Positions 7,523-57,673 of a stretch of 64,000 bases of DNA are shown one piece after another. The number at the start of each line of letters is the position of its first letter. The first letter of the stretch is position 1. A program made the position numbers and the translations under genes. The stretch comes from Escherichia coli (GTDB lineage Bacteria; Pseudomonadota; Gammaproteobacteria; Enterobacterales; Enterobacteriaceae). Where the stretch lies: NCBI RefSeq assembly GCF_030013205.1, contig NZ_CP122648.1; one strand, written 5' to 3'. The notes under the pieces are model-generated. The model was not told where the DNA came from, ran no database searches, and was given only the letters and a program-made list of their open reading frames with translations.

Positions 7523-8515
7523 CTAATCGATGGACAGTTTATGGACACTTTCAGCCAGCGGATTAAAGTTGATCGCGTCCTGTAAGAAGTCCGGCGAAAA
7601 ATGAGCGTACGTCATTGTTTGCTGAATCGTTGCGTGCCCCAGGATTCGTTGCAACGTAACAATATTTCCGCCATTCATCATAAAGTGTGTGGCAAATGTA
7701 TGACGCATGACATGCGTAGCCTGCCCCTTCGGCAAATCCGGTTTCACCTCCTGAAGAATCTCCCGGAACTTCAGATAATCAACCTGATACAATAACCCCG
7801 TTCGACGGGTTTTAATCAGAGGCACGACCGAATCCGCCACAGGAACCGAACGGGATTTTCCGTTTTTGGTGTTAAAGAACGTCACCCGGTTGCCAACGAT
7901 ATGCTCTCCACGTAGTTCCGATGCTTCACTCCATCGGGCACCAGTAGAAAGACACAGAATGGCAACACGACGCGCATCACCCTCCAGTCGCTCAAGAAGC
8001 CGTTCAATCTCATCATCAGAAAGAAAGGCCATCTCTGTGTTCTGAACTTTCAGTTTTCGTATACCGCGTACAGGGTTCGCGTTGTGAAAGACCTCAGCTT
8101 CAATCAGCACCGTGAACATGGTAGACAGTACGCATAAGTCACGATTAATACTGGACGGCATTAATCCGGCCTGTAATTTCTCTGACCGATATTCAAGCAT
8201 AAATTTTCGCGTCATCTGACTGGCGCGAGGATCTCCCATTTCACGAACAACCTTCCCTAGCCTAACCCTGTAGCTATCCCCGTAAGCCTGATTACGCCCA
8301 TCAAGCATCCACCACGCATCAAGCAGCTCTGATAATCGCCGCTGATCAGCTGGCTTAGCCTGCCATGGCTTGTCATGAAAGTTCTGTAACACATACTTCT
8401 CAAACTCCTGAGCCTTTGATTTCAGGGCAAAGATTTTTCGAATCCGCTTTCCTTCCGCCCCCTGCGGTCTGACATCGACCTGATAACGTCCGTCTTTGAG
8501 TTGCTTAATCGACAT
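7523..8515 (-). CDS. int: P2-type tyrosine integrase
   Basis: Strong similarity to P2 Int as I recall it (SIKQLKDGRY..., LCLSTGARW, HxxRHTFATH, YAHF); ATG at 8515 with GGAGG RBS; the track start at 8530 is TTG. Confidence 0.9.
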   Translation of the reverse strand: MSIKQLKDGRYQVDVRPQGAEGKRIRKIFALKSKAQEFEKYVLQNFHDKPWQAKPADQRRLSELLDAWWMLDGRNQAYGDSYRVRLGKVVREMGDPRASQMTRKFMLEYRSEKLQAGLMPSSINRDLCVLSTMFTVLIEAEVFHNANPVRGIRKLKVQNTEMAFLSDDEIERLLERLEGDARRVAILCLSTGARWSEASELRGEHIVGNRVTFFNTKNGKSRSVPVADSVVPLIKTRRTGLLYQVDYLKFREILQEVKPDLPKGQATHVMRHTFATHFMMNGGNIVTLQRILGHATIQQTMTYAHFSPDFLQDAINFNPLAESVHKLSID

Positions 8516-10972: not shown

Positions 10973-11215
10973 ATGGGCAAAGAATATAAAACTCTCATTA
11001 ACAAAGCACTTGAGCGTTTTTATTTTCGCTTAAGTGCATCAGGCGCTCATGCTGAACGTGCAGCCCGTGACTCATTGACCAGGGCAATCCGGAGTCTGTA
11101 TGACGTGGCTTTTTACGCTGATGATCTGGATGCACTTAACGAACTTTCCGAGCTGATCTGTGCCGCAGAATGCGGGGAACATATTGAACCGTATAAGCTG
11201 GGGAATATCGCATGA
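10973..11215 (+). CDS. hypothetical protein
   Basis: 80-aa ORF, tight spacing in operon. Confidence 0.45.
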   Translation: MGKEYKTLINKALERFYFRLSASGAHAERAARDSLTRAIRSLYDVAFYADDLDALNELSELICAAECGEHIEPYKLGNIA

Positions 11216-11325
11216 GTATATTTATCTCGTGGCTTGTTCTGATTATTTCGGTGATCTGCGCTATTGGCATTATGCGAATTATTCATTCAGTGAAAAAGAT
11301 TGAGCGTTTTTTCTCTGACGAATAA
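11212..11325 (+). CDS. 37-aa hydrophobic peptide (MSIFISWLVLIISVICAIGIMRIIHSVKKIERFFSDE), not in ORF track
   Basis: ATG overlaps the upstream stop (ATGA); single predicted TM segment. Confidence 0.3.
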   Translation: MSIFISWLVLIISVICAIGIMRIIHSVKKIERFFSDE

Positions 11326-11418
11326 CAGCACAAATAAAACACCAGATTAAATAAGAAAACGTGAAAACCATCCGAATTAACGGAGGCATTCACACACGTA
11401 AATAATGGAGATACAAAA

Positions 11419-11829
11419 ATGAACGCAAAAGAAAAAGGCATTATAACTGCGCTAAAAAATATATCGGAGACCGCAAACAGAGCCATTCAGGATGCAACAA
11501 ATGCAGGAATGATTGGGCCTGCCACCACAGCCATGATGATAGCAAGAGTAACCGCCGAAGCAGCCGAAATTATCGAAAAACAGGATGCTGAACTAACGGT
11601 TCTCAGAACACAATCAGTCACCGAACTGGATTTGTCTAACACCGGACGCCTTATTTACACAATTGGCTCGGAGCCACAGCAATACACCATTATCGTCGGA
11701 TTACAGGATAAATACCTGATCACTCCTCACCCCATAAGGGAATCAGAAATTCTGACAAATCTCCGCCTGATAGAGCGCTCTCAAGTCGCATTCATTGATG
11801 ACGCACAGCGCACCGTATTTAACGCATAG
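11419..11829 (+). CDS. hypothetical protein
   Basis: 136-aa ORF. Confidence 0.45.
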   Translation: MNAKEKGIITALKNISETANRAIQDATNAGMIGPATTAMMIARVTAEAAEIIEKQDAELTVLRTQSVTELDLSNTGRLIYTIGSEPQQYTIIVGLQDKYLITPHPIRESEILTNLRLIERSQVAFIDDAQRTVFNA

Positions 11830-11853
11830 GGTTACTGGACAAAGGGGGGCGCA

Positions 11854-12057
11854 ATGGCAATTAAGCGTTTTTCCGTCATTCGTTTCACATCCAGAGGGCG
11901 TGAATACGAGGTTGACGAACGGCTGATTAAAACGCTCGACCGTCACCGTTCGCAACCTGACGCGCATCACATTTACCTCACTGACGACACTTACTTCTGC
12001 GCCACCAACGTGGTGCAGGTGAATCTTATCAGACAGGTACAGGAGTCACGCAGATGA
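11854..12057 (+). CDS. hypothetical protein
   Basis: 67-aa ORF, overlapping stop/start with the next gene. Confidence 0.4.
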   Translation: MAIKRFSVIRFTSRGREYEVDERLIKTLDRHRSQPDAHHIYLTDDTYFCATNVVQVNLIRQVQESRR

Positions 12058-12299
12058 CCATTCTGGACTACATCACAGCCAATCCGGGTTGTAGCGGTGG
12101 AGAAATCGCCGCCGCGCTGAATACCCCAACCACAGCCATTAATGCTGAGTTGCGCCGACTCTGGCGTGACGGCTTAGTCATCAGAGAAGAGCGCAAAACA
12201 GGCGGTCGGTTCTCTTACCAGGTAAACCCGATGCCGTTCGGGTGTGGCAACCCACTTACTCACATGTTTAACCAGCTACTGAAGGAAGCCAGAGCATGA
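12054..12299 (+). CDS. small winged-helix-like DNA-binding protein
   Basis: 81-aa ORF, ...GEIAAALNTPTTAINAELRRLWRDGLV... resembles a winged helix. Confidence 0.45.
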   Translation: MTILDYITANPGCSGGEIAAALNTPTTAINAELRRLWRDGLVIREERKTGGRFSYQVNPMPFGCGNPLTHMFNQLLKEARA

Positions 12300-12595
12300 G
12301 CACCATCAACCACCAGGAACTACGCGAACTGGCGACTGACCTGCAACGAATGGCAACGCATCAAAAATTACTGGCGTTTCGCGCAATGCTCTCGCCATCT
12401 GCCGTGTTGGCACTACTGGATGAGCTGGAGCACGCCAGAACCACAGCGCCAGCCATTCGCCTGACGCTCCATCATGAAATCGCTGATTTCTGTGCACCAC
12501 TGGGTTCACCTGGCGAACCGGAAACACCGGAAGCAATGCAGCGAGAGCTGCTGCAACGCATCGACAAGGTTTTTGATTTTTTCCTTAACCAGTAA
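12296..12595 (+). CDS. hypothetical protein
   Basis: 99-aa ORF. Confidence 0.45.
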   Translation: MSTINHQELRELATDLQRMATHQKLLAFRAMLSPSAVLALLDELEHARTTAPAIRLTLHHEIADFCAPLGSPGEPETPEAMQRELLQRIDKVFDFFLNQ

Positions 12596-12606
12596 GGGAT
12601 CGCAGC

Positions 12607-12810
12607 ATGAACAAAAAGACCTGGTTTCGCGCATACATGTGGGCGCTGGTATGCGTCCTCGTTTCTCTCATTCTGTATGCAGGACTCCTCCCCCGAATGA
12701 TTTCATCAGACAGCTCCTTCCTGGTATTGCTGGGCATTTTCATTGCCATGCTGTACCCGGCAGGCGTTGTTCGCCTTTTCAGTAAGTACATCAAGGAAAT
12801 CAAACAATGA
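12607..12810 (+). CDS. small two-TM membrane protein, partner of downstream SPFH protein
   Basis: 67 aa with two hydrophobic helices; stop overlaps the SPFH start. Confidence 0.5.
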   Translation: MNKKTWFRAYMWALVCVLVSLILYAGLLPRMISSDSSFLVLLGIFIAMLYPAGVVRLFSKYIKEIKQ

Positions 12811-13637
12811 AGAAATTCAAACTCTTTCAGATTATCCCTCTTTTTGCCGCCATCCTGCTGGTTGGTTGCGATCGTGTTGAGCCAGGTAATGTGGGCATCA
12901 AAGTCAACAAACTGGGCGACGACAAAGGCGTCGGTGAAGTGGTTGGTGTTGGCCGCTACTGGACTGGCTGGAATACCGAGGTTTACATCTTCCCGACCTT
13001 CAAACAAATGAAGACCTACGATGAGCCGTTCAGCTTCCAGATGAGTGACGGCACAACCATCGGCTATCACATCGGTGTGGCCTACAAGGTTGATCCATCC
13101 AAAGTTACTACAGTGTTTCAGACCTACCGCAAAGGCGTGGATGACATTACCGACACTGACCTGCGCCAGAAGATCGCCGATGCACTCAACCGACTGGCCA
13201 GCAAAATGACCACCGACAAATTTATCGACGGCGGGAAATCTGAACTACTGGATGCAGCTCTTAAAGACATTCAGGAGGAAATGACACCCATCGGTATTCA
13301 GGTAATGAGCCTCTCATATGTGGGTAAGCCGGAGTACCCGTCAACCGTTATCGACAGCATTAATGCCAAAGTCACGGCAAACCAGAAAACCCTGCAACGC
13401 GAACAGGAAGTCAAGCAACGTGAAGCAGAAGCCAACATGTTGCGCGCAGAAGCTGCCGGACAGGCTGATGCCATTCGCACAAAAGCCCAGGCTGAAGCCG
13501 ACGCCATTCGTTTACGCGGTGAAGCTCTGCGCCAGAATCCCGGCGTTATGGAGCTGGAAGCAATCAACAAATGGAACGGCACGCTGCCGCAATACATGAC
13601 CAGCAATACCGCTGTTCCGTTTGTTCCGGTGAAGTAA
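12807..13637 (+). CDS. SPFH/band-7 (prohibitin-like) lipoprotein
   Basis: Lipobox LLVGC after signal peptide; SPFH-like core and Ala/Glu-rich coiled-coil C-terminus. Confidence 0.75.
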   Translation: MKKFKLFQIIPLFAAILLVGCDRVEPGNVGIKVNKLGDDKGVGEVVGVGRYWTGWNTEVYIFPTFKQMKTYDEPFSFQMSDGTTIGYHIGVAYKVDPSKVTTVFQTYRKGVDDITDTDLRQKIADALNRLASKMTTDKFIDGGKSELLDAALKDIQEEMTPIGIQVMSLSYVGKPEYPSTVIDSINAKVTANQKTLQREQEVKQREAEANMLRAEAAGQADAIRTKAQAEADAIRLRGEALRQNPGVMELEAINKWNGTLPQYMTSNTAVPFVPVK

Positions 13638-43338: not shown

Positions 43339-43426
43339 GGTGAGGTGTCCGAGTGGCTGAAGGAGCACGCCTGGAAAGTGTGTATACGGCAACGTATCGG
43401 GGGTTCGAATCCCCCCCTCACCGCCA
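43339..43426 (+). tRNA. serW: tRNA-Ser (anticodon GGA)
   Basis: 88-nt GGTGAGGTGTCCGAGTGG...TTCGAATCCCCCCCTCACCGCCA with long variable arm and GGA in the anticodon loop. Confidence 0.93.
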
Positions 43427-43472
43427 TATTCAAAGAAGAGCTCGTACGAAAGTAGGGGCTTTTTTTTCGCAT
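43408..43472. repeat. direct repeat copy 1 (tRNA-Ser 3' end plus terminator)
   Basis: aatccccccctcaccgccatattcaaagaagagctcgtacgaaagtaggggcttttttttcgcat. Confidence 0.7.
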
Positions 43473-43587
43473 ATTGCACACACCGGGGGGATGAGAAGCC
43501 CCGACCGGGGTTCGACAACTGGCGCAGCCAGTTGGACAGACCACGAACACAGTGAGTGGGCTGCCCGCAGGGCGAGCGAAGCGAGTC

Positions 43588-43651
43588 AATCCCCCCCTCA
43601 CCGCCATATTTAAAGAAAAACTCGTACGAAAGTACGAGTTTTTTTTCGCAT
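43588..43651. repeat. direct repeat copy 2 (duplicated tRNA-Ser 3' end plus terminator)
   Basis: aatccccccctcaccgccatatttaaagaaaaactcgtacgaaagtacgagttttttttcgcat, near-identical to copy 1. Confidence 0.7.
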
Positions 43652-46196: not shown

Positions 46197-46517
46197 TCAG
46201 GCTTTTTCTAGCGTACACAGCAATGGATGCTCATTCTCCCTCGCGTACTTGTTCACCATCGCCACTTTGGTTTCTGCAACCTCGGCGGTAAAGACTCCGC
46301 AAATGGCCTTCCCCTGGTAGTGAACAGCGAGCATCAATTGCGTTGCACGTTCTACATCATAAGAAAAGAATTTTTGTAACACGTCAATAACAAACTCCAT
46401 CGGAGTGTAATCATCATTGACTAATATCACTTTATACATAGATGGCGGTTTTAGCGCGTCGCGAACTTTTTCTTCCGCCAGTTGATCAAAGTCCAGCCAG
46501 TCGTTCGTTTTACCCAT
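46197..46517 (-). CDS. clpS: Clp adaptor ClpS
   Basis: 106-aa [46 protein letters not shown]... Confidence 0.95.
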
Positions 46518-46690
46518 TGTCAGTTATCATCTTCGGTTACGGTTATCGGCAGAACGCCCTGCCGCTGACAAGAGCTTATTTGCCTGACCAATCTACTCCA
46601 CATGATAGATAACTATCATTTATATCATTTAGTTAATTAGTCTTTATTTTTCATTATGTTGCAAATAACAACCCCGTCAAAAACAGTGAT

Positions 46691-46715
46691 ATTAACTACA
46701 CCATTAACTACACCG
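46691..46715. repeat. island-end repeat attaactacaccattaactacaccg (tandem 12-mers)
   Basis: Near-identical 25-mer at 57068..57092; both followed by CGAACAA-type motifs. Confidence 0.6.
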
Positions 46716-47303
46716 CTTCACGAACAATATCGAACAACCGCGAACAAAGATCAACACGCTTTAATCATTATCATTTTCCGGCTATCCGTCATGAAGCTGG
46801 TGGATGATCTGCGTGGTGATTTCCACCATTCAGAGCAGGGGCGGTCATCATGACCATGCCATAACAAAAACCCCATATTCGTGGTTTTTCTGTGTCGGGG
46901 CTATTCTGCTGTTGCCGTGCTGGTGGATATTCTCCGGTATGCGGCTCCCCATATCGGCATCAGGCCCACCAGCGTGAAGCGTTTTTCATTTTTCGCGGGT
47001 ATAAAAAATCGATGGGGCGGGCAGTCCTGAAGACGTCAGGGTACGGAGATTTGACCCGCCCCTCCCTGTGCATGAGCACAATAAGTAACCGAAGGCGGAA
47101 TTCCGCCCTCGGTACTTACATATGAGAAACGATATTTCTTCCACCGATACCCTTTATTTGGGTATTGCGAGTAAGCCCCAAAATCTGGGTGTTACTCTTA
47201 CTACCCAAACTACGGGTAGTTTCCGTAGTTTCATGGTCGAGTTGCAAATCTGCAACTCACCCACCAGCCAACGCAATTTTGCGTTATCGGGAATATCAGC
47301 AAG

Positions 47304-47591
47304 TTACCGCCGCAGTCGTTCCGGCTTCTTCCACTGGTAAGTATTTTTCGCGCTCTCCCTCCGTTGTTGAGAACGGCGACGGTATGCCAGCAACTCAAGG
47401 ACTCTGGTTCGTATGTTGCGCATATCCACGCCGTTAAGCTCAATACCATCACGGCGCATCACCTCAGCAACAACACGCGCGTAATTTTCAGCGGTGACTG
47501 TATCCGGCTGCGCGGCCTGTTCGTCAGCCAACTGGCTGATTCCACCAGCACAGCGGATTAATCGCAGTATTTCAGATTCGGTCATTATCAT
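47304..47591 (-). CDS. hypothetical protein downstream of terS-like gene
   Basis: 95-aa ORF, ATG overlaps the upstream stop. Confidence 0.5.
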   Translation of the reverse strand: MIMTESEILRLIRCAGGISQLADEQAAQPDTVTAENYARVVAEVMRRDGIELNGVDMRNIRTRVLELLAYRRRSQQRRESAKNTYQWKKPERLRR

Positions 47592-48073
47592 GCCTGTTTT
47601 GCGACCTCATTCACTACGTCATTTTTTACCATCCGGCTGATAATCTGATTACACAAATCGTCAATAATTGACTGCACTCTGTTTACTGCCATCGGTTTAA
47701 GCCCGGCATCACGTGCCAGAATATTGGGGAGTTTTGCCAGTTCCTCGCTTACGATTTCCCCCCATATAGCCATCTCTTTTCGCACATCATCGGCGGGTAT
47801 GAGTTGCGCCGTTTCCTGTTCGAACTTGAGGCGTTCACGTTCGGACTGATACCAGGCCTTACGGTCTTGTGGCTCCATTTCTTCCAGTGATGCCGGAACG
47901 GGAAGATCAAGAAAACAGGTCAGAATGTCAGTCACCCGATAGAGTTTCAGCTTGTCATGCCCTCCGGCTGGCTGGATGTTTTTCAGCCTTGCCGCCGCAG
48001 TCTGACGACATATTCCCGCTATCGCCGCCAGTTGATTAATGTTCAGCATCAGATTTTTCAGTTCTCGATCCAT
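47588..48073 (-). CDS. Nu1-like small terminase subunit / packaging-redirection (Rpp-like) protein
   Basis: ATG at 48073 (MDRELKNLMLNINQLAAIAGICRQTAAARL...), N-terminal wHTH plus coiled coil resembling lambda Nu1; the track start at 48160 is TTG. Confidence 0.55.
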   Translation of the reverse strand: MDRELKNLMLNINQLAAIAGICRQTAAARLKNIQPAGGHDKLKLYRVTDILTCFLDLPVPASLEEMEPQDRKAWYQSERERLKFEQETAQLIPADDVRKEMAIWGEIVSEELAKLPNILARDAGLKPMAVNRVQSIIDDLCNQIISRMVKNDVVNEVAKQA

Positions 48074-48226
48074 ACCCGCTCCAGAATGTTTTAAACATGC
48101 ATCTTGCGAACAACTTTCAGAAGAGGTCAAAAAATGCGCTATATGTTGAGCATAAAACAAGCAAAATTAACATGCCAAAAATAAAAATACTTAAAATTCA
48201 ATACAATATGAAGATGATGATGACGA

Positions 48227-48322
48227 ATGAAAATGCAAAAACTAGCCTTTTTCCGCGCCGCTCCCGCCCCGTGGCAGACCACTCCACCGGGAGGACCCGT
48301 AAAAAAGGCGGCTGTCGCCGCC
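48227..48322. repeat. conserved intergenic element A (about 72 nt shared with element B, then a GC hairpin)
   Basis: About 85 percent identical to 50761..50832; hairpin ggcggctgtcgccgcc at 48307..48322. Confidence 0.6.
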
Positions 48323-48329
48323 CTTGTTG

Positions 48330-50243
48330 TCATGCTCCACTCGATTTCAGTAATCCGCGATAATCGAGGGCCGCGACACCTGCATCTATGCGCACTTTCC
48401 AGGCGACACCATCAACAGTAAAGCCCACCTGCTCCTCAAGATATGGCGTATCCATACCATCAAGATAAGCGACTTCTATTGTGTCCATCCCCTTAGCTGC
48501 GGCTACATACCATTCCTTGCTATTGGCCTTATCAAGACGTGGCTCAACAATTACTTCTGCCATATCTTTCACCACGTTAATGATGCCGGGGTTCTGATTG
48601 ATAGTGCTCTCATCACCAACCGGAAAGACTGATGACGATGACAGAATGGCGCGACGCGCGGCAGATTCCAGCGCGGCAGGGACCAGAACAAAAGCAGGGG
48701 TAATATTCAGTGAGTCGCCGTTAGCATCCTCCTGGAGGCGCATCAGCTTACGGGCTTCATCAAGCCCCACCATGTCCATATCCTTCGCAATAAGATTTTT
48801 ATGATCGGCATGGAATAACGCTTTACCATCCGTAAATTTGCCGTTGCTGGTTAACAGAAGATAAACCAGATTACCTACTGTTCTGGCGGCCGCACGCCCC
48901 ATCGCCATGGGGATTGTAGTTAACTGGGTCAGGTCATCGTTGATAATGGCCTGACGGGTAACAGAAAAAATATTACCGTATGTGGCCAGCGCAATAGGTA
49001 CACCTTTATCGCTGGTGGTGATGTATTTATATTCCGCACCTTCCGGTACTTTATCCAGCTTTGAAAAACCATTCAGACCAACGCGCTTTGCTTCATGAAA
49101 GTTTGAAAGCGATCCGGTACGCGTCCATTTCTGGAACGTTTCGCCGCTGTCCTGCCAGCCTTTCAGCACTGATTTTTCAGCACCACCAGCCAGAATATGA
49201 GAAAAATCGCTGCTGCTGTGTGTGAAAGCTGCATTAACGACCTGCGAGCGATTTAAAAAACTGCCAACACTGATACCACGATCAGTTAGTGATGCCTGGG
49301 CCATTTCAAAAAGGCTCATCATCGCGTAAGGATTTCCCCGCTCTGGGCGTTCATACCCAAGACGAGAATAAAGCCCCTGACGAATTGCATCGCCTGTTAT
49401 GTTCCCGTTACCGGCATAAATATGAGTCGGGATATTTTTATTGGATGGCGTGGACTCGCGCCCCAGCTCGTTCAACAACTTTTCACGGGCCATCTCCGGT
49501 GTACATGATGCATCCTCCAGGCACGCCATTTTGATCCCGTCGTAACGACTGCCGAACAGGCTAAACACTTCACTTATTCCGTTGATGCGCTTCTGTTCAT
49601 TACCAGCAATATTGGCTGCTCCCTGTGGCGGGGTAATCATTCCTTTAATGGTTTCAGGCATGTGTGAAAAATCTCCTGTGCGTTTCGATTCAATTCGCGC
49701 CATTGCTGTGACAGATGGCAACAATTCATCAGCAAAACCGTGCTTAAGGCATTCTTTCCCGTCCATCCAGGTTTCATCTTCCAGCATGGCGGTAATTTCC
49801 TGTGCTGATTTGCCCGTTTTTCTGGCATAAGCAGGGACTAACACGGTTTCCACCTTATCCAGCAAATCAGCATAATCACGCATATCACCAGCATTTCCGC
49901 CAGAGATACCCCACGGCTTATGTATCATCATCATGGCGTTTTCCGGCATCACAACACGATCGCCAGCCATTGCGACAACCGAAGCCATTGAAGCCGCAAC
50001 ACCATCGATATAAACCGTAATTTCTGCCGGATGATTCCGTAACAGGTTATAGATGGCGATGCCTTCAAACACGTCACCACCTGGCGAATGGATCCGCAGG
50101 TCGATATGTGAGACATCGCCCAGGGCTTTCAGGTCTTCCGCAAACTGCTTCGCGGTAATACCGAAGCCGCCAATTTCTTCATAGATGGATATTTCTGCCG
50201 CTCCGCGAACACCCAGCGCCTTAATGGTGTACCAGTGATTCAT
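48330..50243 (-). CDS. prohead protease (ClpP/S49-like) fused to HK97-fold major capsid protein
   Basis: Single 637-aa ORF; N-terminal serine-protease-like region (HSPGGDVFEGIAIYN...), C-terminal roughly 400 aa capsid-like. Confidence 0.8.
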   Translation of the reverse strand: MNHWYTIKALGVRGAAEISIYEEIGGFGITAKQFAEDLKALGDVSHIDLRIHSPGGDVFEGIAIYNLLRNHPAEITVYIDGVAASMASVVAMAGDRVVMPENAMMMIHKPWGISGGNAGDMRDYADLLDKVETVLVPAYARKTGKSAQEITAMLEDETWMDGKECLKHGFADELLPSVTAMARIESKRTGDFSHMPETIKGMITPPQGAANIAGNEQKRINGISEVFSLFGSRYDGIKMACLEDASCTPEMAREKLLNELGRESTPSNKNIPTHIYAGNGNITGDAIRQGLYSRLGYERPERGNPYAMMSLFEMAQASLTDRGISVGSFLNRSQVVNAAFTHSSSDFSHILAGGAEKSVLKGWQDSGETFQKWTRTGSLSNFHEAKRVGLNGFSKLDKVPEGAEYKYITTSDKGVPIALATYGNIFSVTRQAIINDDLTQLTTIPMAMGRAAARTVGNLVYLLLTSNGKFTDGKALFHADHKNLIAKDMDMVGLDEARKLMRLQEDANGDSLNITPAFVLVPAALESAARRAILSSSSVFPVGDESTINQNPGIINVVKDMAEVIVEPRLDKANSKEWYVAAAKGMDTIEVAYLDGMDTPYLEEQVGFTVDGVAWKVRIDAGVAALDYRGLLKSSGA

Positions 50244-50449
50244 TGCTCCCCCCCAGATGCAAAACCATTCTTATCAAGCCACGCGTTAACCGCGTGTCTG
50301 ACAATCTGCGCCGCACCTGGTAATGGTTGGTCAGGATGATGATTTATGTGGTCGATCCTGTACTGCTTAAGGCGCATAACGGTCTGCGCATCCAGATGAA
50401 CGGAACCACCTTTTACCTCGCCTGTGTTCAGGTCGTTAATACAATTCAC
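50240..50449 (-). CDS. hypothetical small protein (non-ATG start)
   Basis: 69-aa ORF with GTG start and AGAGGA RBS; stop overlaps the capsid start. Confidence 0.4.
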   Translation of the reverse strand: MNCINDLNTGEVKGGSVHLDAQTVMRLKQYRIDHINHHPDQPLPGAAQIVRHAVNAWLDKNGFASGGEQ

Positions 50450-50760
50450 AGTAACTTCCTCTTACTGACTAAACTGCGCGCATTATTGATCGATAAAAGT
50501 GGTAGATAAACATATTTCTATCATAAAAATAGATTAATCAGATTCAGACACAAAAAAGCCGGAGAGAATCCGGCATAAATATCCCGCCATCTGAACACGT
50601 TTTGCACAGGCAACTCCATCTGGCAGGTGAAAAACAAATTTATTTATATATTTCAATTAATTGCAAACTGGTCTAATGACAGGGAGAAAAAAATATTGTA
50701 CAGGTGAAAACAGAAATAACTTTTAATTATCAATAAATTACTACACATGCTGCCGCCGCC

Positions 50761-50858
50761 ATGAAAATGCAAAAACCAGCCTTTTTCCGCGACGCTCCCG
50801 CCCCGTGGCAGGTCACTACACCGGGAGGACCCATAAAAAAGCCGGATTGCTCCGGCTT
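50761..50858. repeat. conserved intergenic element B (copy of element A core, different terminal hairpin)
   Basis: atgaaaatgcaaaaaccagcctttttccgcg...ccgggaggaccc then gccggattgctccggc hairpin with T-run on the minus strand. Confidence 0.6.
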
Positions 50859-50872
50859 CTGTTACTCGTTGC

Positions 50873-51295
50873 TTAAAACGGTATGTTATCCCCGTACGGA
50901 TCATCATTTCCCGCCTGTTGTTTTGCTCTGCTCAGTGCATCAGTAGCCTGCCCCTGTTGGCCTTTTTTGCCGCCCGGTCGCGCCGTTCTCGCACTGATTA
51001 CGCTGTCTGCGATAACCTGCCAGCCCTGCCGCGTCTCCCCGTTCTGTCCGGTCCACTGGCTCACCTGCATGTTACCCGCCACGCTCAGGAGTTCACCCTT
51101 GCGGTGCTTTGCCAGTGCTTCGGCCTGTCTGCCAAACGCCAGGACGGATAACCACATCGTCGCCGTTCCGTCATCTGCCTGGCTGCACGGAAGTGGGACC
51201 GCCATACTCGCCATCGTCATTTGTGTACCCTTGCTGGTGGTCTTTAACTGCGGGTCAGCCACCAGCCGCCCGTAAGCCGCTATCTGTGCTGTCAT
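50873..51295 (-). CDS. single-stranded DNA-binding protein (SSB-like)
   Basis: 140 aa, OB-fold-like N-terminus and acidic C-terminal tail DDPYGDNIPF like the SSB DDDIPF tail. Confidence 0.65.
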   Translation of the reverse strand: MTAQIAAYGRLVADPQLKTTSKGTQMTMASMAVPLPCSQADDGTATMWLSVLAFGRQAEALAKHRKGELLSVAGNMQVSQWTGQNGETRQGWQVIADSVISARTARPGGKKGQQGQATDALSRAKQQAGNDDPYGDNIPF

Positions 51296-51537
51296 GCTGT
51301 CTGCTCTCCGGTTTTAACGTTGATGGTTGTCACCTGTTCCGCTTCGGCAATCTCCCGTTCTGTCAGCGTGGCAAAGTTTGCAGCTGCCGTTGTCATGAAT
51401 GAGCTAATCAGTTCGGGATGTGCTTTCGCATATCCTTCCCCGGCGTTGCGGTCGATGATTTTTATCGACACCCTTAACCAGTGTTCCGTCAAATCAAGGG
51501 CGTGCGATTGTGATTTTTTTGTGTGCTTCGCTGTCAT
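51292..51537 (-). CDS. hypothetical protein
   Basis: 81-aa ORF overlapping the SSB start. Confidence 0.45.
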   Translation of the reverse strand: MTAKHTKKSQSHALDLTEHWLRVSIKIIDRNAGEGYAKAHPELISSFMTTAAANFATLTEREIAEAEQVTTINVKTGEQTA

Positions 51538-51583
51538 AGGCTTTATCTCACAGCAGTAAATTAAAATTTTTGCGTTTTAACCC

Positions 51584-51812
51584 TTCACCTGTTCACCTTT
51601 TGATATTTTATCTTTTAATTCATAATGTTAAGGGGTGAACAGTTTCACAAAAACTATTCACCAACTGTTCACCACTGTTCACCCTTGAAGCTCAATAAAC
51701 AATCAAAAAGGTGAACAGTGAATAGTTTGGTGAACAGTTCATAAATAACTGTTCACCCTATAACATACTGATACAAAAGATATTTATGACAGGGTGAACA
51801 GTGGTGAACAGT
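51584..51812. repeat. iteron array: at least 9 copies of TGTTCACC/GGTGAACA in both orientations (P4 ori/crr-like)
   Basis: Octamers counted at 51590, 51634, 51666, 51676, 51710, 51729, 51750, 51793, 51803, with TATTCACC variants; immediately downstream of the alpha-like gene. Confidence 0.7.
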
Positions 51813-51824
51813 TATTCCATAAGT

Positions 51825-53642
51825 TTAATTTTTGCTATCGTCATTAGTGACCGATACACATGATGGCATCCAGTCTTCTGATTCCTCCGTCAGTGTCACG
51901 TTTGAACGCAAACCGTGCTTCGTTTTCCGTTTCATATACTCCCTGCCATATTCCGCCATTGCCCCCGGCATATCTTTACCGAAGCGCGTCAGTGTTACAG
52001 GTTTACCAAACCCATGTGCCCTCATATAAGCCAGATAGGCATGATAGAGATACCTGCGTGGGCTGAATGGCACAATTTCAGCATTACCCACTAACAGGCC
52101 ATCACACATTACCGACGCCATGAGATAGCCGCAGAAGTCCACCAGCGAATCCCCCTCTCGCTTTATCGCCAGTGCTTCTTCAGATTTCTGCTGCTCATAT
52201 AACAGGCGTCTGGCTTCGTCCTGGTCAGCAAACCGTGTAAGCAGATGGCGAATCACTACCGCCAGCTCACCTTCTATTTTTTCCGCCAGCATTGGATCGC
52301 GTTCGTTCTCCGGTACAACTTCCGAAAAATTGAATATCACCCGACGACGTGAGATCCCCCCGCTGCGGTCACTGAATGACATGGCGTTATTGTTAACCGC
52401 CAGCACTACTGCCGGAATACGCGTTGAGTAGGGGGCTTTGTGTTTCGGGTCAATTGCCACCTTGTCACCGCCTGTAATGGCCTTAATTCCTGCCCCATCA
52501 CCAGCGTAGCGGGTCATATCCGGCATGATAATCAGCGAAAAGCCAACCACTAACGCGCGTTCCCTTGCATCTTCCAGCGCCTTCATGCTTGCCGATACTG
52601 TGTTGGCCTTACCCGCCAGCATGGTGCAAATCTCCGCCATCACGCTTTTACCACTTCCCCCTGGACCTGTTACCTCAATGAATAACTGCCAGTCGTACCG
52701 GTTCGCCAGCACCATGAATAATGCAGCCAGTACGCGATCCGCCTTGCGGTCATTCTCAGCCACCGAACGGCGTAACCACTTCCAGAAATTCGGCGCATGT
52801 GTTGCCAGCGTTTCCCCCTCTGCTGGTGGGCTGAAAGGTAATTCACTGGCAATTAACAACCAGTCGTTTTTGTTATGCTCCCGAAAATTACCTGTTCTGG
52901 TATCAAATACCCCGTTACTGAATCCAATCAGGTTACGGGCTGTATTCCCCATAACAGGCAAACTTAACTTCATGGTATCGACCGCCGATTTAATGGCGTT
53001 CTGCGAATAGCTGATCTCCGCATCAATGAAAATCTGTGCCATAGCTCGCTGTAATTCTTTATCCTGTACTGGCTCCCATACAACGCCGTTGTAATGGTGA
53101 ACAGTGTCAGAGTCAGCATGAATCGCCAGTTCACCGCCATAATGTGCCAGGAGAACTTCGCCGCGTTGACTTGCTCCCATCTGGTTAAGCGCCAGTGATG
53201 AAGCGTTATCGTCTTTTACCCGCTCTTTTTTCTTTACAGGCAGTTCAACTACCTTTTTCTTTTCCGCCTGCTCTGCCCGTTCACGTTCCAGATATTCGCG
53301 CCAGTTCTCCCGTTTCTGGCTGTGCATTCCTTCAGGGTAATAATCAGCATCCCTGACACCTGCCGCTGCCAGTTTCTGCCCGATGGTATTAACAAGCCCC
53401 GGACGCAATAACCCCGCCTGGTAGAGACGCACGCGATAGCGTCCGTCCGGTACGATTTGCAGGTTGTCCAGTTCGGCAAGTTGTTGCTCTCCAAGCCAGA
53501 CAGGTGGCACGTTATCGCCAGCCAGTCGCCCGTCCTGTTCCTGCCACTGCTTCGCATGTGCCCACGCATCACTACCCGCAAAAATGATGACTTCCGTCAT
53601 TTTGTCACGCGGCTGGTGTTTTAAATTTGGCGCTTTTTTCAT
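51825..53642 (-). CDS. P4 alpha-like replication protein (D5_N / SF3 helicase, primase-helicase family)
   Basis: Walker A GPGGSGKS; ATG at 53642 with GGAGAG RBS; the track start at 53657 is GTG. Confidence 0.8.
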   Translation of the reverse strand: MKKAPNLKHQPRDKMTEVIIFAGSDAWAHAKQWQEQDGRLAGDNVPPVWLGEQQLAELDNLQIVPDGRYRVRLYQAGLLRPGLVNTIGQKLAAAGVRDADYYPEGMHSQKRENWREYLERERAEQAEKKKVVELPVKKKERVKDDNASSLALNQMGASQRGEVLLAHYGGELAIHADSDTVHHYNGVVWEPVQDKELQRAMAQIFIDAEISYSQNAIKSAVDTMKLSLPVMGNTARNLIGFSNGVFDTRTGNFREHNKNDWLLIASELPFSPPAEGETLATHAPNFWKWLRRSVAENDRKADRVLAALFMVLANRYDWQLFIEVTGPGGSGKSVMAEICTMLAGKANTVSASMKALEDARERALVVGFSLIIMPDMTRYAGDGAGIKAITGGDKVAIDPKHKAPYSTRIPAVVLAVNNNAMSFSDRSGGISRRRVIFNFSEVVPENERDPMLAEKIEGELAVVIRHLLTRFADQDEARRLLYEQQKSEEALAIKREGDSLVDFCGYLMASVMCDGLLVGNAEIVPFSPRRYLYHAYLAYMRAHGFGKPVTLTRFGKDMPGAMAEYGREYMKRKTKHGLRSNVTLTEESEDWMPSCVSVTNDDSKN

Positions 53643-53938
53643 TTCGGCTCTCTCCACGCGGCAATCATGTTTTTCAGTTCCTGCAGTTTTTTATCCACAT
53701 CCACACGTGACACATGGTTATTTCTGGAAGTCGGGATTTCCCGCCGGAATCTGCTAATAAAGATCTCCACGTTCAGCGAACTATGAAATGAATAGCCATC
53801 ACGAATAAAATACACACGGTCAAACATCAGTTCTTTTACCGTTACTCTGTTACCGTTCTTATCCAGATAAATAGCGCCGGGGATAATTTTGGGGTGTGCA
53901 TAACCGCTGGCAGTCAAGCCAGATAAATATGTTCTCAT
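53639..53938 (-). CDS. hypothetical protein
   Basis: 99-aa ORF, overlapping start/stop with the alpha-like gene. Confidence 0.45.
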   Translation of the reverse strand: MRTYLSGLTASGYAHPKIIPGAIYLDKNGNRVTVKELMFDRVYFIRDGYSFHSSLNVEIFISRFRREIPTSRNNHVSRVDVDKKLQELKNMIAAWREPK

Positions 53939-53944
53939 GATTAT

Positions 53945-54265
53945 TTATCCCCGATTTGAATCAGTATTCGCTTTCTTTATGGCATTTAATGCATCTGTGG
54001 CATTTTCAATGGTGCACCGTAACGAAATATCAAACTGCCCAAGCATTGCCAGTAACAAACCGATATTACCCATATCAATGCGCATGGCCTTTTCGTCATA
54101 GTCCTCATTTTCTGACGCATGCCACATCAGGCTACCAATTGACGCAACAGCCATTGATATATTGTCAGTAGCCCCATCAGCAGCGGAATAAACCTTTTTA
54201 GCAATATCATGCTCACAGTTAAAATGCGGATTAATCAGGTACTGGTAATTTGACATATCAGGCAT
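53945..54265 (-). CDS. hypothetical protein
   Basis: 106-aa ORF. Confidence 0.45.
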   Translation of the reverse strand: MPDMSNYQYLINPHFNCEHDIAKKVYSAADGATDNISMAVASIGSLMWHASENEDYDEKAMRIDMGNIGLLLAMLGQFDISLRCTIENATDALNAIKKANTDSNRG

Positions 54266-54461
54266 GGCACACCCCCTGACGAATACGGGCGGCGAATACC
54301 ATCACGTAGCCAGCCGGGGATTGCTGGCGTGCTTCCTGTTCACTGGTGGCCTCAATGGTAATCACGCGCGGTTGTGCCGTGCTCAGGGCGATAAAACGCC
54401 AGATGTATTTATTCAGGTTGTACGAGTCCCGCCCTTGCGGGTGTCTGGTATAATTTCTCAT
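54258..54461 (-). CDS. hypothetical small protein (real part of a spurious 302-aa track ORF)
   Basis: Internal ATG at 54461 with GAGG RBS (MRNYTRHPQGRDSYNLNKYIW...). Confidence 0.3.
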   Translation of the reverse strand: MRNYTRHPQGRDSYNLNKYIWRFIALSTAQPRVITIEATSEQEARQQSPAGYVMVFAARIRQGVCHA

Positions 54462-54540
54462 AGCTGCCTCGATACTGTTGCTATCGTTGGTGGTTAGACG
54501 CCCTGCATGTGTGCCACCACTGCGGGGCGTTGTTGCTTGG

Positions 54541-54630
54541 TGCATCGCACCATTCGTTTTTAACCTATCAGCAAGTGAATCGCACTTCAAGCCTTTCTCT
54601 GAAATTTTTTTTGTGTATACTGAATCGCAC
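54541..54630. promoter_or_regulatory. three direct repeats TG(C/A)ATCGCAC plus a TATACT -10-like box upstream of the RHH gene
   Basis: Copies at 54541, 54576 and 54621; TATACT at 54616..54621. Confidence 0.4.
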
Positions 54631-54651
54631 CAACTTAGAGAGGATTCAGTA

Positions 54652-54831
54652 ATGGCAACAGGTTCAACAAATAATAAGTCGCAACAGTTAAATGCCAGAT
54701 TCCCGCATGATGTTGTTGCAGACTTAGAAAAAAATTTAGATGAAGGTGAAAGCAAGGCGCAATTTATAGTTACTGCCGTTAAAGGCGAGATCAAACGCCG
54801 CCAGCGCCGCAAGGCCAAAGAGCAGGAGTAA
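54652..54831 (+). CDS. ribbon-helix-helix (Arc/CopG-like) DNA-binding protein
   Basis: 59 aa; N-terminal beta-strand-like LNARFPHDVVADL; GAGAGG RBS. Confidence 0.55.
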   Translation: MATGSTNNKSQQLNARFPHDVVADLEKNLDEGESKAQFIVTAVKGEIKRRQRRKAKEQE

Positions 54832-54873
54832 CCATCACCAGCGCCGTGGTGTGAGTAACTACGGCGCATTGCT

Positions 54874-55062
54874 ATGCAGGACAACACAATGACCGATAAA
54901 GAATTGACCAAAACATTATCACCGGCACGGAAAAGACGGCGCAGAAAGATAGAGCATGAATCAGAAAGATTCGCGCCATGTGCTTTTGCTCTTGAGAAAT
55001 TCCTTAAAGAGCACAGGAAAAAGCTCTCGTTGCAAACCTTGGAACGAACCAAATCTGACTGA
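54874..55062 (+). CDS. hypothetical small basic protein
   Basis: 62-aa ORF followed by hairpin ggcgaccgcccccggtcgcc with T-run. Confidence 0.3.
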   Translation: MQDNTMTDKELTKTLSPARKRRRRKIEHESERFAPCAFALEKFLKEHRKKLSLQTLERTKSD

Positions 55063-55176
55063 TCACATTGCCCACCAGCCGCAAATGTGGCATTGTTGGT
55101 GATGCGTTCAAGTTTAGTGTGTATCCATTGGCGACCGCCCCCGGTCGCCTTTGTTTTATATGTCATATGCTCCCCT

Positions 55177-55386
55177 TTACGCTGCCTTGCCTGAATTAAT
55201 GCGATCCCGGCTTTTAACCCATTCCATAACCTCGGACAGCAGCCAACCTACAGAACGACCGCCCAGATTACGGCGTGACGGGAAATTCCCTTTTTTCTCC
55301 AGTTCATAGCGTGTAGTGCGACACACTCCAGTTAACTTACGACATTCATCCTCACGGATTACGCGATCTTCATTTATTTCACGCAT
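55177..55386 (-). CDS. alpA: AlpA-family transcriptional regulator
   Basis: 69 aa, MREINEDRVIREDECRKLTGVCRTTRYELEKKGNFP... typical AlpA/Xis HTH. Confidence 0.8.
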   Translation of the reverse strand: MREINEDRVIREDECRKLTGVCRTTRYELEKKGNFPSRRNLGGRSVGWLLSEVMEWVKSRDRINSGKAA

Positions 55387-55805
55387 ACAAAAACCTACAT
55401 AAAAAATTACGTATATAAACTTTTCTCTTAGCTGTAGATATATGAGATCGGATATTACTTAGATTCTTTTTTCACCTCTTAAATTAAAAACACAACCTTG
55501 CTAAAGGCTTTGTTCGCTAAGGTTCGTAGAAGCTCGTTAGTGTTTAAAATCGTGTCACGAGTTTTTAAGCGATGCAACAAAAAATGTCGTTACTTGGCAT
55601 TACGCTTGAATTATCTCATTAAAAACAAATAGATAAACCATCAAGTGTTGGAACAATCAAGAAACAGAGAATAAAAGTTCAGAAGAAGACATTCCAATTT
55701 TTTGATGGTTGACATATATAAAGCGAAGATATTTGCAGATATTTTCCGATATTCTACGATTTATTCACGGCTGTAATCTCTTAAAGAAAAAACAGCCGTA
55801 ATTTG

Positions 55806-57053
55806 TCAAGAATTTTGGGGGTAAATTCGCGGGGTCATAACAACGATTTTTTCATCATTGTTCTGGAGAAGCTCGAGACGGTCTACCCATAGATTAAGAG
55901 CATCACGTTTTGCATCAAGATAACGGGAGTGGTTATAGACTCGTTGCATCCCCGGCATCTGGTGGGCGGTAAGCTGCTCGACAATATGCGGATCCACGCC
56001 TAAATCGTTCAGCATGGTTGTAAATGTGTGCCGGATGTCATGCAACGACCAGGGGGCTTGATTAATGCGTCTGTGTGCCGTTCTTCCGTACTCTGCTACG
56101 GATGATTGCCCTTTCAGTTCTCCAAGCAATAAGCCCGTGTGCCTGTTCTTCTCCACCAGCTTCATGACAAACGGCAAGATCGCTTCCGGTATTGGCCTGA
56201 ATATTGCTACCTTCGTTTTGCTGTGTTCTTTCGGCACAGTCCAGAGCATTTCTTTAAAATCCCATTCCTGAACCTCGGAGCGTCTTAGCTCAGTGGTACG
56301 GCATCCAAAGACAATCAGAAGGCGAATTAAGGCGCTGTAGTACGGCGGGAAAATTTTTTCATCCAGTGCGCGGAGTAGCTCGCCAAGCTCCTTGTTTGTT
56401 AGCACTCGCTCGCTTATTTCTGCTTTTTTTCCCACATCACCTACGACCATATCATCAAGAACGTTACTGACGGCGTAGCGACGTTTACGGCAGTACTTAA
56501 GCGCCTGCTTGCATACCTGCAACAAAAAGCCGGCTGATACCGGATTACGCTTAGCAAGCTGGTCAAAACAGGCCAGCCAGTGGCGTAACTCGCATTTATC
56601 CAGCGGCATAGCACCAATCTGGCTGATTATGTGCTTATTGATCCGGCTTTTCAGTGATTCGTGGTCAGTGCGCTTTTCCTTCGCGTATGACTCAAGCCAG
56701 TAAGTGATCGCGTCCTTAACCGTTACAGGTGCTAACGCTTCCTGCACTGTGTGATTAAGCTCATGGCGTGGATTTTTCCCCTCCGCCAGCCAGGCGCGAC
56801 ACTGTGCCGCTTTTTCTCTGGCTGCTTTCAGGCTCAGATCGGGATAGTTGCCCAGTCTCAGGCGTTCCGGTGATACCTGCCTGCCAGTTCCGGCCCTGTA
56901 AGTGAAATACCAGGTTAACAGGCCATTGGTTGAATGCCTTACGCTAAGGTTGCCACCATCATTAAAAAAGGTGTTTTTTGTGGTTGGTGATCCGCTTAAT
57001 TTTCGTAAAAGAGTGTCGCTAAGTCTATGAATTGCCCTGCTCATGTTTCGCAT
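55806..57053 (-). CDS. int: tyrosine integrase (P4-type)
   Basis: 415 aa with catalytic-region motifs (HDIRHTFTT, YNHSRY); at the island end next to cspD. Confidence 0.9.
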   Translation of the reverse strand: MRNMSRAIHRLSDTLLRKLSGSPTTKNTFFNDGGNLSVRHSTNGLLTWYFTYRAGTGRQVSPERLRLGNYPDLSLKAAREKAAQCRAWLAEGKNPRHELNHTVQEALAPVTVKDAITYWLESYAKEKRTDHESLKSRINKHIISQIGAMPLDKCELRHWLACFDQLAKRNPVSAGFLLQVCKQALKYCRKRRYAVSNVLDDMVVGDVGKKAEISERVLTNKELGELLRALDEKIFPPYYSALIRLLIVFGCRTTELRRSEVQEWDFKEMLWTVPKEHSKTKVAIFRPIPEAILPFVMKLVEKNRHTGLLLGELKGQSSVAEYGRTAHRRINQAPWSLHDIRHTFTTMLNDLGVDPHIVEQLTAHQMPGMQRVYNHSRYLDAKRDALNLWVDRLELLQNNDEKIVVMTPRIYPQNS

Positions 57054-57067
57054 TTCCGGTCATCAAA

Positions 57068-57092
57068 ATTAACTACACCATTGACTACACCG
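57068..57092. repeat. island-end repeat attaactacaccattgactacaccg
   Basis: 24 of 25 identical to 46691..46715; 15 bp beyond the integrase start. Confidence 0.6.
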
Positions 57093-57448
57093 TGCATCGT
57101 ACAAGGGCAAACAGCGACGAACAAGGGCGAACAAGAAAAACGAAATTTTCCTTTATAATCATAGCAATAAATGAGATAGATACACCACGACGAACACCCG
57201 CGAACACTAACTGATAAATAACTATCATCTATCGTTGGCATCAGCGACATCTGTCACATTCCTGTCAATAGCGTTAACTGCTTCAAATTTTTGATTCATA
57301 CCTGCCCCCTGGCCCCTGTCAAATGCTTGACGGCTCGCCCTAATTCTCTAAATTGTATTTCTAGAGTTGACGAGGTTTTGAACAGCCCCCTCTCTGACCC
57401 CGGTTTATTCCATCTTACTTGTATAAGATTTGCGAAGGATGTCGAAGC

Positions 57449-57673
57449 ATGGAAAAGGGTACTGTTAAGTGGTTCAACAATGCCAAAGGGTTTGGTTTCA
57501 TCTGCCCTGAAGGCGGCGGCGAAGATATTTTCGCTCATTATTCCACCATTCAGATGGATGGTTACAGAACGCTAAAAGCTGGACAATCCGTTCAGTTTGA
57601 TGTCCACCAGGGGCCAAAAGGCAATCACGCCAGTGTTATTGTGCCCGTCGAAGTAGAAGCGGCAGTCGCATAG
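57449..57673 (+). CDS. cspD: cold-shock-domain protein CspD
   Basis: ATG at 57449 (MEKGTVKWFNNAKGFGFI...), 74 aa; the track start at 57419 is TTG. Confidence 0.93.
   Translation: MEKGTVKWFNNAKGFGFICPEGGGEDIFAHYSTIQMDGYRTLKAGQSVQFDVHQGPKGNHASVIVPVEVEAAVA

Follow-up and report, generated by a model that had tools for sequence, protein, structure and literature searches.

A probable classical phage-inducible chromosomal island with a protease-capsid fusion gene and two lambda-like cos sites between clpS and cspD of Escherichia coli

The island, its boundaries and its gene content

The window analysed here is a stretch of 64,000 nucleotides from Escherichia coli (assembly GCF_030013205.1, contig NZ_CP122648.1), and between its clpS and cspD genes there lies an island of 10,620 bp, at positions 46609-57228 (Table 1). 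The island encodes a tyrosine integrase, an AlpA-type activator, a primase/helicase with an iteron origin beside it, a single-stranded DNA-binding protein (SSB), a homologue of small terminase subunits (TerS) and a single polypeptide in which a prohead protease and a major capsid protein are fused. We consider this element to be a classical Gram-negative phage-inducible chromosomal island (PICI), of the EcCI type or 'Type A' of SatelliteFinder, situated at a known PICI attachment (att) site, the 3' end of yljB, and put the probability of this assignment at about 0.88.

Both ends of the island are marked by an exact 11-bp direct repeat, ATGATAGTTAT, of which there are two copies in the 64-kb window where 0.01 would be expected by chance. 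The same core has been published for EcCIIHE3034 (10.5 kb) and EcCI18098 (10.8 kb), which are listed at cspD-clpS in Table S1 of Fillol-Salom et al. (2018, ISME J, PMC6092414). When the DNA between the two cores is deleted in silico a clean empty site results, a sequence of 294 bp that is identical at 291 of its 294 positions, and without a gap, to the cspD-clpS spacer of K-12 MG1655, which is 323 bp long and has a single ATGATAGTTAT core. The gene at the site, yljB, has 24 codons (922740-922814 in K-12) and stays intact on integration because the att core is duplicated. The original prediction, which was made from the bare sequence, had rightly recognised an insert between clpS and cspD, but the ends it proposed, 46691 and 57092, fall on repeats internal to the island (ATTAACTACACC and others), the true ends being 46609 and 57228. 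These internal repeat clusters, found inside both ends, are probably arm-type sites of the integrase.

All of the island genes are on the minus strand except for two small divergent open reading frames (ORFs), and alpA is situated near int. A 100% identical copy of the island is present in E. coli KGu016, where PGAP annotates the same genes: a tyrosine integrase, an HTH (AlpA-type) regulator, a divergent YlcI/YnfO gene, an Icd-like gene, a hypothetical gene, a DUF4222 gene, a DNA primase family gene, a second hypothetical gene, SSB, the ClpP-like prohead protease/major capsid fusion, a DUF1441 gene and a third hypothetical gene. When all of the ORFs were scanned against PHROG and NCBIfam, none matched a portal, large terminase (TerL), tail or lysis family. 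There are just four ORFs longer than 200 aa, namely int, the primase gene, the capsid fusion and a 302-aa ORF that contains the Icd-like gene (PHROG 6196 covers its residues 214-301 only, the upstream part matches nothing, and PGAP annotates the 67-aa Icd-like gene alone), and as three of these are assigned and the fourth is matched in part there is no room for a hidden portal or TerL gene. The gene list of the original prediction (integrase, AlpA, divergent small regulator, primase/helicase with iterons, SSB, small terminase and protease-capsid fusion) is thereby confirmed, and so is its statement that portal, large terminase, tail and lysis genes are missing.

In the PICI model of SatelliteFinder there are five core components, an integrase, an alpA-type regulator, a primase-replicase, a capsid-morphogenesis gene and a small terminase, and tail, holin, portal and connector genes are forbidden (PMC10085698). 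The island possesses all five components and none of the forbidden genes, and its size of 10.6 kb is within the range of about 8-15 kb by which PICIs are recognised. The small terminase is represented by the DUF1441 protein and the capsid-morphogenesis gene by the capsid fusion, a gene that is present also in the reference PICI EcCI224. PICIs with all five components make up 'Type A' (n=375), of which 97% are from E. coli (PMC10085698), and a capsid gene has been reported for 21 of the 29 reference Gram-negative PICIs, PICIs with a CLP_protease gene being mentioned explicitly (PMC10111431). The primase-replicase gene of the island is followed by an origin with iterons, and the origins of Gram-negative PICIs have been described with iterons likewise 3' of pri-rep (PMC6092414). 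In Pri-Rep the C-terminal domain of P4-family primases (TIGR01613) reaches 95 bits, below its cut-off of 108.7.

Table 1. Features of the island and its flanks in the order of the window, with the protein identity of each gene to its counterpart in two reference PICIs
Feature	Position	Strand	Basis or remark	EcCIIHE3034	EcCI224
clpS	46197-46517	-	flank of island
att core, clpS side, ATGATAGTTAT	46609-46619	-	exact match to published EcCIIHE3034/EcCI18098 core
3' non-coding tail	46620-47303	.	no PHROG match for any ORF; terminator-like hairpin 47088-47113
internal repeat cluster near clpS-side end (ATTAACTACACC x2 and CGAACA motifs), probable arm-type sites	46691-46756	.	direct-repeat families D2 and D3, common to 57068-57133
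93-aa terminal gene, conserved across PICIs	47304-47585	-	PHROG 1561 E=1e-52; 74-98% in CFT073, IHE3034 and EcCI224	78%	98%
DUF1441 small-terminase homologue, 161 aa	47588-48073	-	Pfam PF07278 E=2e-35; PHROG 141 'terminase small subunit' E=9e-57	absent	99%
cos2: second cosQ/cosN, then mEp460-type cosB, directly upstream of terS	48074-48320	-	mEp460 comparison
ClpP-like prohead protease / scaffold-like linker / HK97-type major capsid fusion, 637 aa	48330-50243	-	NF045540 904 bits (cut-off 475); PHROG 133 E=8e-284	absent	96%
69-aa ORF, end overlapping capsid-fusion start	50240-50449	-	PHROG 4934 E=4.8e-30, full-length match	absent	86%
cos1: lambda-like cosQ/cosN (...TATGGGTCCTCCCGG...CCACG/GGGCGGGAGCGTCGCGG...), then cdtI-type cosB	50596-50854	-	phage cdtI comparison
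SSB	50873-51295	-	TIGR00621 59 bits (cut-off 54)	92%	19-aa remnant
81-aa protein	51292-51537	-	PHROG 1231 E=8e-49; 86% also to CFT073	86%	absent
replication origin, nine exact GGTGAACAG iterons	51597-51819	.	both orientations, 60-80% A+T spacer, directly 3' of pri-rep
Pri-Rep primase/helicase, 605 aa	51825-53642	-	PHROG 864 'DNA primase' E=6e-193	48%	99.8%
DUF4222 protein	53639-53938	-	PGAP name	34%	94%
106-aa protein	53945-54265	-	PHROG 15327 E=1.4e-71	absent	98%
Icd-like small protein, 67 aa	54258-54461	-	PGAP name; PHROG 6196	90%
divergent YlcI/YnfO-family small protein	54652-54831	+	PGAP name; PHROG 949 E=3.5e-24
AlpA-type activator/excisionase	55177-55386	-	PHROG 2790 E=2.7e-17	99%	92%
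tyrosine integrase, 412 aa	55806-57044	-	PHROG 1 integrase E=5.5e-68; PGAP tyrosine recombinase	94%	67%
matching internal repeat cluster adjoining int, probable arm-type sites	57068-57206	.	direct-repeat search
att core, cspD/yljB side, ATGATAGTTAT	57218-57228	-	overlaps yljB stop codon
cspD	about 57449-57673	+	flank of island

Relationship to published islands

Every protein of the island was compared with those of EcCIIHE3034, EcCI224 and EcCICFT073, and EcCI18098 was compared by its table entry (site, core and size). For each gene one or other of EcCIIHE3034 and EcCI224 has an orthologue whose product is 86-99.8% identical. On these identities the island is a recombinant of two published reference PICIs, with its genes in the same order as in EcCICFT073: the early end with the integration genes, together with SSB, is of the EcCIIHE3034 type, while the replication block and the whole of the late block (the 69-aa ORF, the capsid fusion, terS and the 93-aa gene) are of the EcCI224 type. 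As the att site, the orthology and the five-component core all match published PICIs, the ORFs of the island correspond one-to-one to those of a described satellite family, a check that the original prediction had itself proposed and one that is answered here by EcCIIHE3034 and EcCI224. Its opinion that the element fits no known satellite family is contradicted by the published att site and core, the orthologues in these two islands and the Type A core set, and an element that belongs to a catalogued family of Gram-negative PICIs is not the poorly described system it was thought to be. Likewise, the 'P4-like' replication and regulation module is a superficial resemblance, AlpA-type and primase-type genes being common to PICIs and P4.

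Other satellite families were considered and set aside. The core set of P4-like satellites consists of psu, delta, sid and epsilon with the alpha primase, alpA and int (PMC10085698); no PHROG family annotated as sid, psu, delta or epsilon was matched in the island (no dedicated P4 hidden Markov model scan was made), which shares with these satellites only int, alpA and primase. Identity with a capsid-forming PICI (cf-PICI) was rejected on the absence of portal, connector, HNH and TerL genes from all ORFs in the PHROG and NCBIfam scans. PLE of Vibrio, whose core is capR, repA, nixI, lidI and others, was set aside on gene content only, the host here being E. coli.

The whole island is present, at a coverage of at least 80%, in 51 of 5426 complete E. 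coli genomes (about 1%), and the late module from the 69-aa ORF to the 93-aa gene in 186 of the 5426 (about 3%), islands at rcnR-thiM included; island or late module thus occur at two or more att sites. Fusion proteins of about 637 aa that are 71-79% identical are found in Klebsiella, Pectobacterium, Dickeya, Citrobacter, Enterobacter, Serratia and Yersinia, and those of Shigella and E. albertii are 91-100% identical. Two of these contexts were examined, in Klebsiella and Serratia, and both are islands at the fis locus with the order int-(alpA)-primase-small ORF-capsid fusion and without portal or TerL. On a Klebsiella metagenome contig the fis-site island has, directly after the ClpP/capsid fusion and in the place occupied by terS in the E. 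coli islands, an ORF of 810 aa that resembles a tape-measure protein (TMP_2, Tape_meas_lam_C; 11186-13618). Between the capsid fusion and terS, two sister islands, those of E. coli FCI56 (11702-12432 of the retrieved locus) and UTME-8 (cspD-clpS site), carry an additional 'tail assembly protein' gene together with a fragment of a tail protein. This tail assembly gene may be defence cargo of the Tai (tail assembly inhibition) type, as in the PICIs of PMC11364771.

Some of the small genes of the island deserve comment. In place of the 69-aa ORF, PGAP calls a 57-aa ORF on the opposite strand (50336-50509, +) that has no PHROG match. The 69-aa ORF on the minus strand is probably the real gene and the RefSeq call probably on the wrong strand, because the former matches PHROG 4934 over its full length and has counterparts in Klebsiella and Serratia PICIs, where co-oriented ORFs of 59-64 aa overlap the start of the capsid fusion. 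The YlcI/YnfO gene is at the equivalent place in CFT073, IHE3034 and EcCI224. Pfam gave nothing significant for the 69-aa and 93-aa proteins, and PADLOC recognised no defence system among ten island proteins, a marginal match to BrxA (E=0.008) being disregarded. A search of the island with Rfam gave no RNA family for the 680-bp non-coding tail, the single match, to a eukaryotic long non-coding RNA, being below threshold and taken as chance.

cos sites, small terminase and capsid fusion

The island contains a 94-nt repeat, the copies of which are 88% identical and lie at 50761-50854, in the gap between SSB and the 69-aa ORF, and at 48227-48320, in the gap between the capsid fusion and terS. Each copy is part of a cos site (cos1 and cos2, respectively). 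On the coding strand the cos copies resemble cosQ-cosN of lambda, for example TTTACGGGTCCTCCCGG...CCACGGGGCGGGAGCGGCGCGG against TTTACGGGTCC...TTACGGGGCGGCGACCTCGCGG in lambda. Over 237 nt cos1 with the 160 nt that follow it is 92.4% identical to the cos junction of phage cdtI, reaching 24 nt into cdtI terS, with 96% identity in the cosB part, and cos2 with the sequence downstream of it is 84% identical to the cos region of mEp460, the cosB part being 79% identical. The GenBank records of phages cdtI and Tritos start exactly at GGGCGGGAGCG, the equivalent of the left cohesive end of lambda, which suggests that this is the position of the cut. The cos sequences of lambda, phi80 and CFT073 are given in the supplement of Fillol-Salom et al. 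(2018, PMC6092414).

The TerS of the island has 65-70% amino acid identity to the TerS proteins of the mEp460 group (65% to that of mEp460 itself) and about 30% to the TerS of cdtI. Although it is encoded at the equivalent island position, by sequence it is not an Rpp homologue: with tblastn it found no match (E<1e-3) in the CFT073 island, where RppA is encoded, and a sequence search of the PDB matched no solved Rpp or TerS chain. Many E. coli genomes contain related DUF1441 genes. In one E. coli prophage that was examined, a closely related DUF1441 terS is followed by TerL, portal and the ClpP/capsid fusion, so that the head module is complete.

From these comparisons we infer that the helpers are lambdoid phages with a head and terminase module of the mEp460, cdtI or Stx-phage type. 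The earlier proposal of a helper-dependent satellite with a lambdoid cos helper is strengthened by the likeness of cos1 to cdtI, that of cos2 to mEp460 and the relatives of terS. The cos1 site should be read directly by the TerS of a cdtI-type helper, and cos2 would probably be read by the TerS of the island, which would steer the helper TerL to island DNA. Two cos sites are found in EcCICFT073 too, and the reason for the pair was a question raised by its authors (2019). EcCIIHE3034 has two cos-like sites as well, a cdtI-like one, GGGCGGGAGGCGCGG, after SSB and a lambda-type one, GGGCGGCGACCT, before terS (positions 7528 and 9970 of the retrieved locus), and these two cosN types fit the idea that each cos of a PICI targets a different type of helper. 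The review of Murialdo and Feiss covers islands of the Rpp type only, and the cos comparison and the prediction of helpers are the part of this analysis that is not already in the literature searched.

Among phages, the nearest relatives of both TerS and the capsid fusion are those of lambdoid phages of the mEp460/cdtI/Stx type. Identity of the capsid fusion to gp05 is 57% for mEp460 and for cdtI, gp05 being nearly alike in the two phages. The capsid domain can be aligned with that of gp05 from end to end; the linker is 29 aa shorter, and there is a short N-terminal extension and an insertion of 7 aa. Both phage proteases have the motifs GVAASMA and MIHKP in identical form at the aligned positions, and by comparison with ClpP these motifs carry the catalytic Ser and His. 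Between the window copy of the gene and three other PICI copies dS is about 0.25 and dN/dS about 0.08, and the fusion has therefore been kept by selection inside PICIs; by this measure it is to be regarded as an intact, functional gene under purifying selection. It would most likely co-assemble with the homologous fusion of the helper, or replace it, and so bias capsid assembly towards the island. A more elaborate proposal, which we think rather unlikely, is that the fusion subgroup builds island-specific and possibly smaller shells on a stolen helper portal and, in addition, has its two cos sites tuned to two helper terminase specificities. Shells built in this way may represent a step between classical and capsid-forming PICIs, and cos sites tuned to two helper terminases would, if real, explain why there are two of them in a PICI, as was asked in 2019. 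Literature searches for a PICI tied to mEp460 or to the protease-capsid fusion type found no functional study.

A life cycle can be proposed for the island in which we infer its induction, the choice of helper and the roles of both cos sites, TerS and the capsid fusion. A lambdoid helper phage would induce alpA, Int (with AlpA) would excise the island at the 11-bp core, and Pri-Rep would fire the iteron origin to give concatemers. The large terminase of the helper would then cut at the lambda-like cos sites, and the DNA would pass into heads on the helper portal, to which helper tails would be joined. The two cos sites would provide two routes of packaging, cos1 via the TerS of a cdtI-type helper and cos2 via the diverged TerS of the island.

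Besides the island, the window contains a single stretch of DNA derived from phage, a degraded P2-like prophage that spans about 21 kb (7440-28470, between dmsA and serS) and has integrase, Cox, tail sheath, tube and tape-measure genes, ogr and hok. Of its capsid and scaffold genes there are only fragments, and neither a terminase nor a portal gene is present; E. coli ETEC4079 has a 100% identical copy, and KGu016 lacks the prophage. This prophage was rejected as the helper because the P2 family is the wrong type for a PICI with lambda-type cos and its head genes are fragmentary. The flanks of the island differ between the window and KGu016. Downstream of tRNA-Ser (serW), at 43339-43606, there is one RtT element (Rfam) in the window and two in the annotation of KGu016, and the tRNA coordinates of the two strains are offset by 177 bp. 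An IS200/IS605 transposase gene lies between ycaC and dmsC in KGu016 and is absent from the window.

Alternative readings and comparison with known systems

Several points weigh against the assignment of the island to the classical PICIs and the life cycle proposed with it. Fillol-Salom et al. (2018) introduced markers into the TerS-encoding islands of IHE3034 and 18098 and obtained no transfer of them on induction of resident prophages, and there is therefore no known helper for the subgroup at this site. In EcCICFT073, deletion of the lambda E-type capsid gene or of the decoration gene affected neither transfer nor interference, and the heads were phage-sized, so a role in packaging cannot be taken as given for the capsid fusion. 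The suggested position of the cos cut follows the choice of record start made by the depositors of the phage sequences and not measured ends. Finally, induction, excision, replication and transfer, likely as they are, are all deduced from EcCICFT073 and the anatomy of the island.

It is possible, if doubtful, that the island is a PICI in which the fusion and the TerS homologue are mainly means of interference with phages, either as poison capsid subunits or by titration of TerL/TerS, in the manner of Ccm and Rpp/Ppi. PICIs are known to hinder their helpers through capsid homologues (Ccm of SaPIbov5) and TerS-binding proteins (Rpp); the divergence of the fusion from helper-type proteins and its loss of 29 aa of scaffold-like linker would suit such a function, and for packaging by a cdtI-type helper the cos1 site could be enough. 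However, the TerS homologue is full-length and adjoins a cosB-like region of its own, as would be fitting for a working specificity subunit, and it lacks sequence similarity to RppA of CFT073 and to any solved Rpp structure. Much less credible is a decayed lambdoid prophage that has kept int, a replication gene, a capsid gene and terS and is no longer mobile. The late genes are clearly of lambdoid phage origin and the islands tested at the cspD-clpS att site failed to transfer, but the 11-bp att repeats are intact and excision gives a clean empty site, all of the genes are intact, with the capsid gene under purifying selection, and the compact gene set is found again at other att sites and in further genera. 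Moreover, alpA, the Icd-like gene, the DUF4222 gene, pri-rep and the 93-aa gene constitute a set specific to PICIs and not the early genes of a lambdoid phage.

A further possibility, and in our estimation an improbable one, is that of a new satellite family intermediate between classical and capsid-forming PICIs, which would make its own shell from the fusion and borrow only portal, TerL and tails. This would accord with a complete and selected protease/scaffold/capsid fusion accompanied by its own TerS homologue, and with a lineage of short-linker fusions that is found in PICI contexts across Enterobacterales; the literature searches, moreover, found no paper testing the role of the fusion capsid type in a PICI. 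Against it, the gene set, gene order, att site and sequences correspond to catalogued PICIs one-to-one, capsid genes are a core part of the PICI model and widespread among the reference islands, and the genes that define cf-PICIs (portal, connectors, HNH and TerL) are absent. In addition, the capsid and terS genes of PICIs and cf-PICIs separate almost perfectly in the SatelliteFinder trees (PMC10085698). The island would therefore be at most a functional sub-type inside PICIs and not a new family. As a discovery the island, a routine member of a catalogued satellite family under its assignment to the classical PICIs, carries little weight. Its use is a narrow one: TerS-encoding E. coli PICIs at this site are without a known helper, and the cos comparison predicts, as helpers, lambdoid phages with the head and terminase module of mEp460, cdtI or Stx phages.

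Set beside EcCIIHE3034, the island shares the site, the identical 11-bp core, a similar size and gene order, a TerS of its own and two cos-like sites. The two differ in that the capsid gene of EcCIIHE3034 is of the lambda E type, a D-type decoration gene is present and terS is another one, preceded by a lambda-type cosN, whereas the window island has the ClpP/capsid fusion, the DUF1441 terS and a cosN of the cdtI/mEp460 type. EcCI224 (at rcnR-thiM, listed as frmR-thiM in Table S1) has both cos sites at matching places, but it is at another att site with another integrase (67%), has an extra DUF6387 gene after int and no 81-aa gene, and retains of SSB a remnant of 19 aa. With EcCICFT073, itself AlpA-driven with a lambdoid cos helper, the island has in common int, alpA, the divergent YlcI gene, the Icd-like and DUF4222 genes, pri-rep and an iteron origin, SSB, a small ORF with a capsid gene, a packaging-specificity gene, the 93-aa gene and two cos sites; EcCICFT073 differs in its RppA TerS-binding adaptor, its cos of lambda/phi80 type, its lambda E-type capsid gene with a separate decoration gene, and perC. 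The cf-PICIs of the EcCIEDL933 type resemble the island in the int/alpA/primase left half, in encoding their own capsid protein, protease and TerS and in having no tails. They are, however, about 15 kb in size and also encode portal, head-tail connectors, HNH and TerL, none of which is in the island. The likeness to the head module of mEp460, cdtI and Stx-converting phages extends over the DUF1441 TerS, the ClpP/scaffold/capsid fusion (gp05) and the cosQ/cosN sequence, although these phages have in addition TerL, a W-like protein, portal, a decoration protein and tails. Judged by this likeness, the lambdoid mEp460/cdtI/Stx head module is the source lineage of the late genes of the island.

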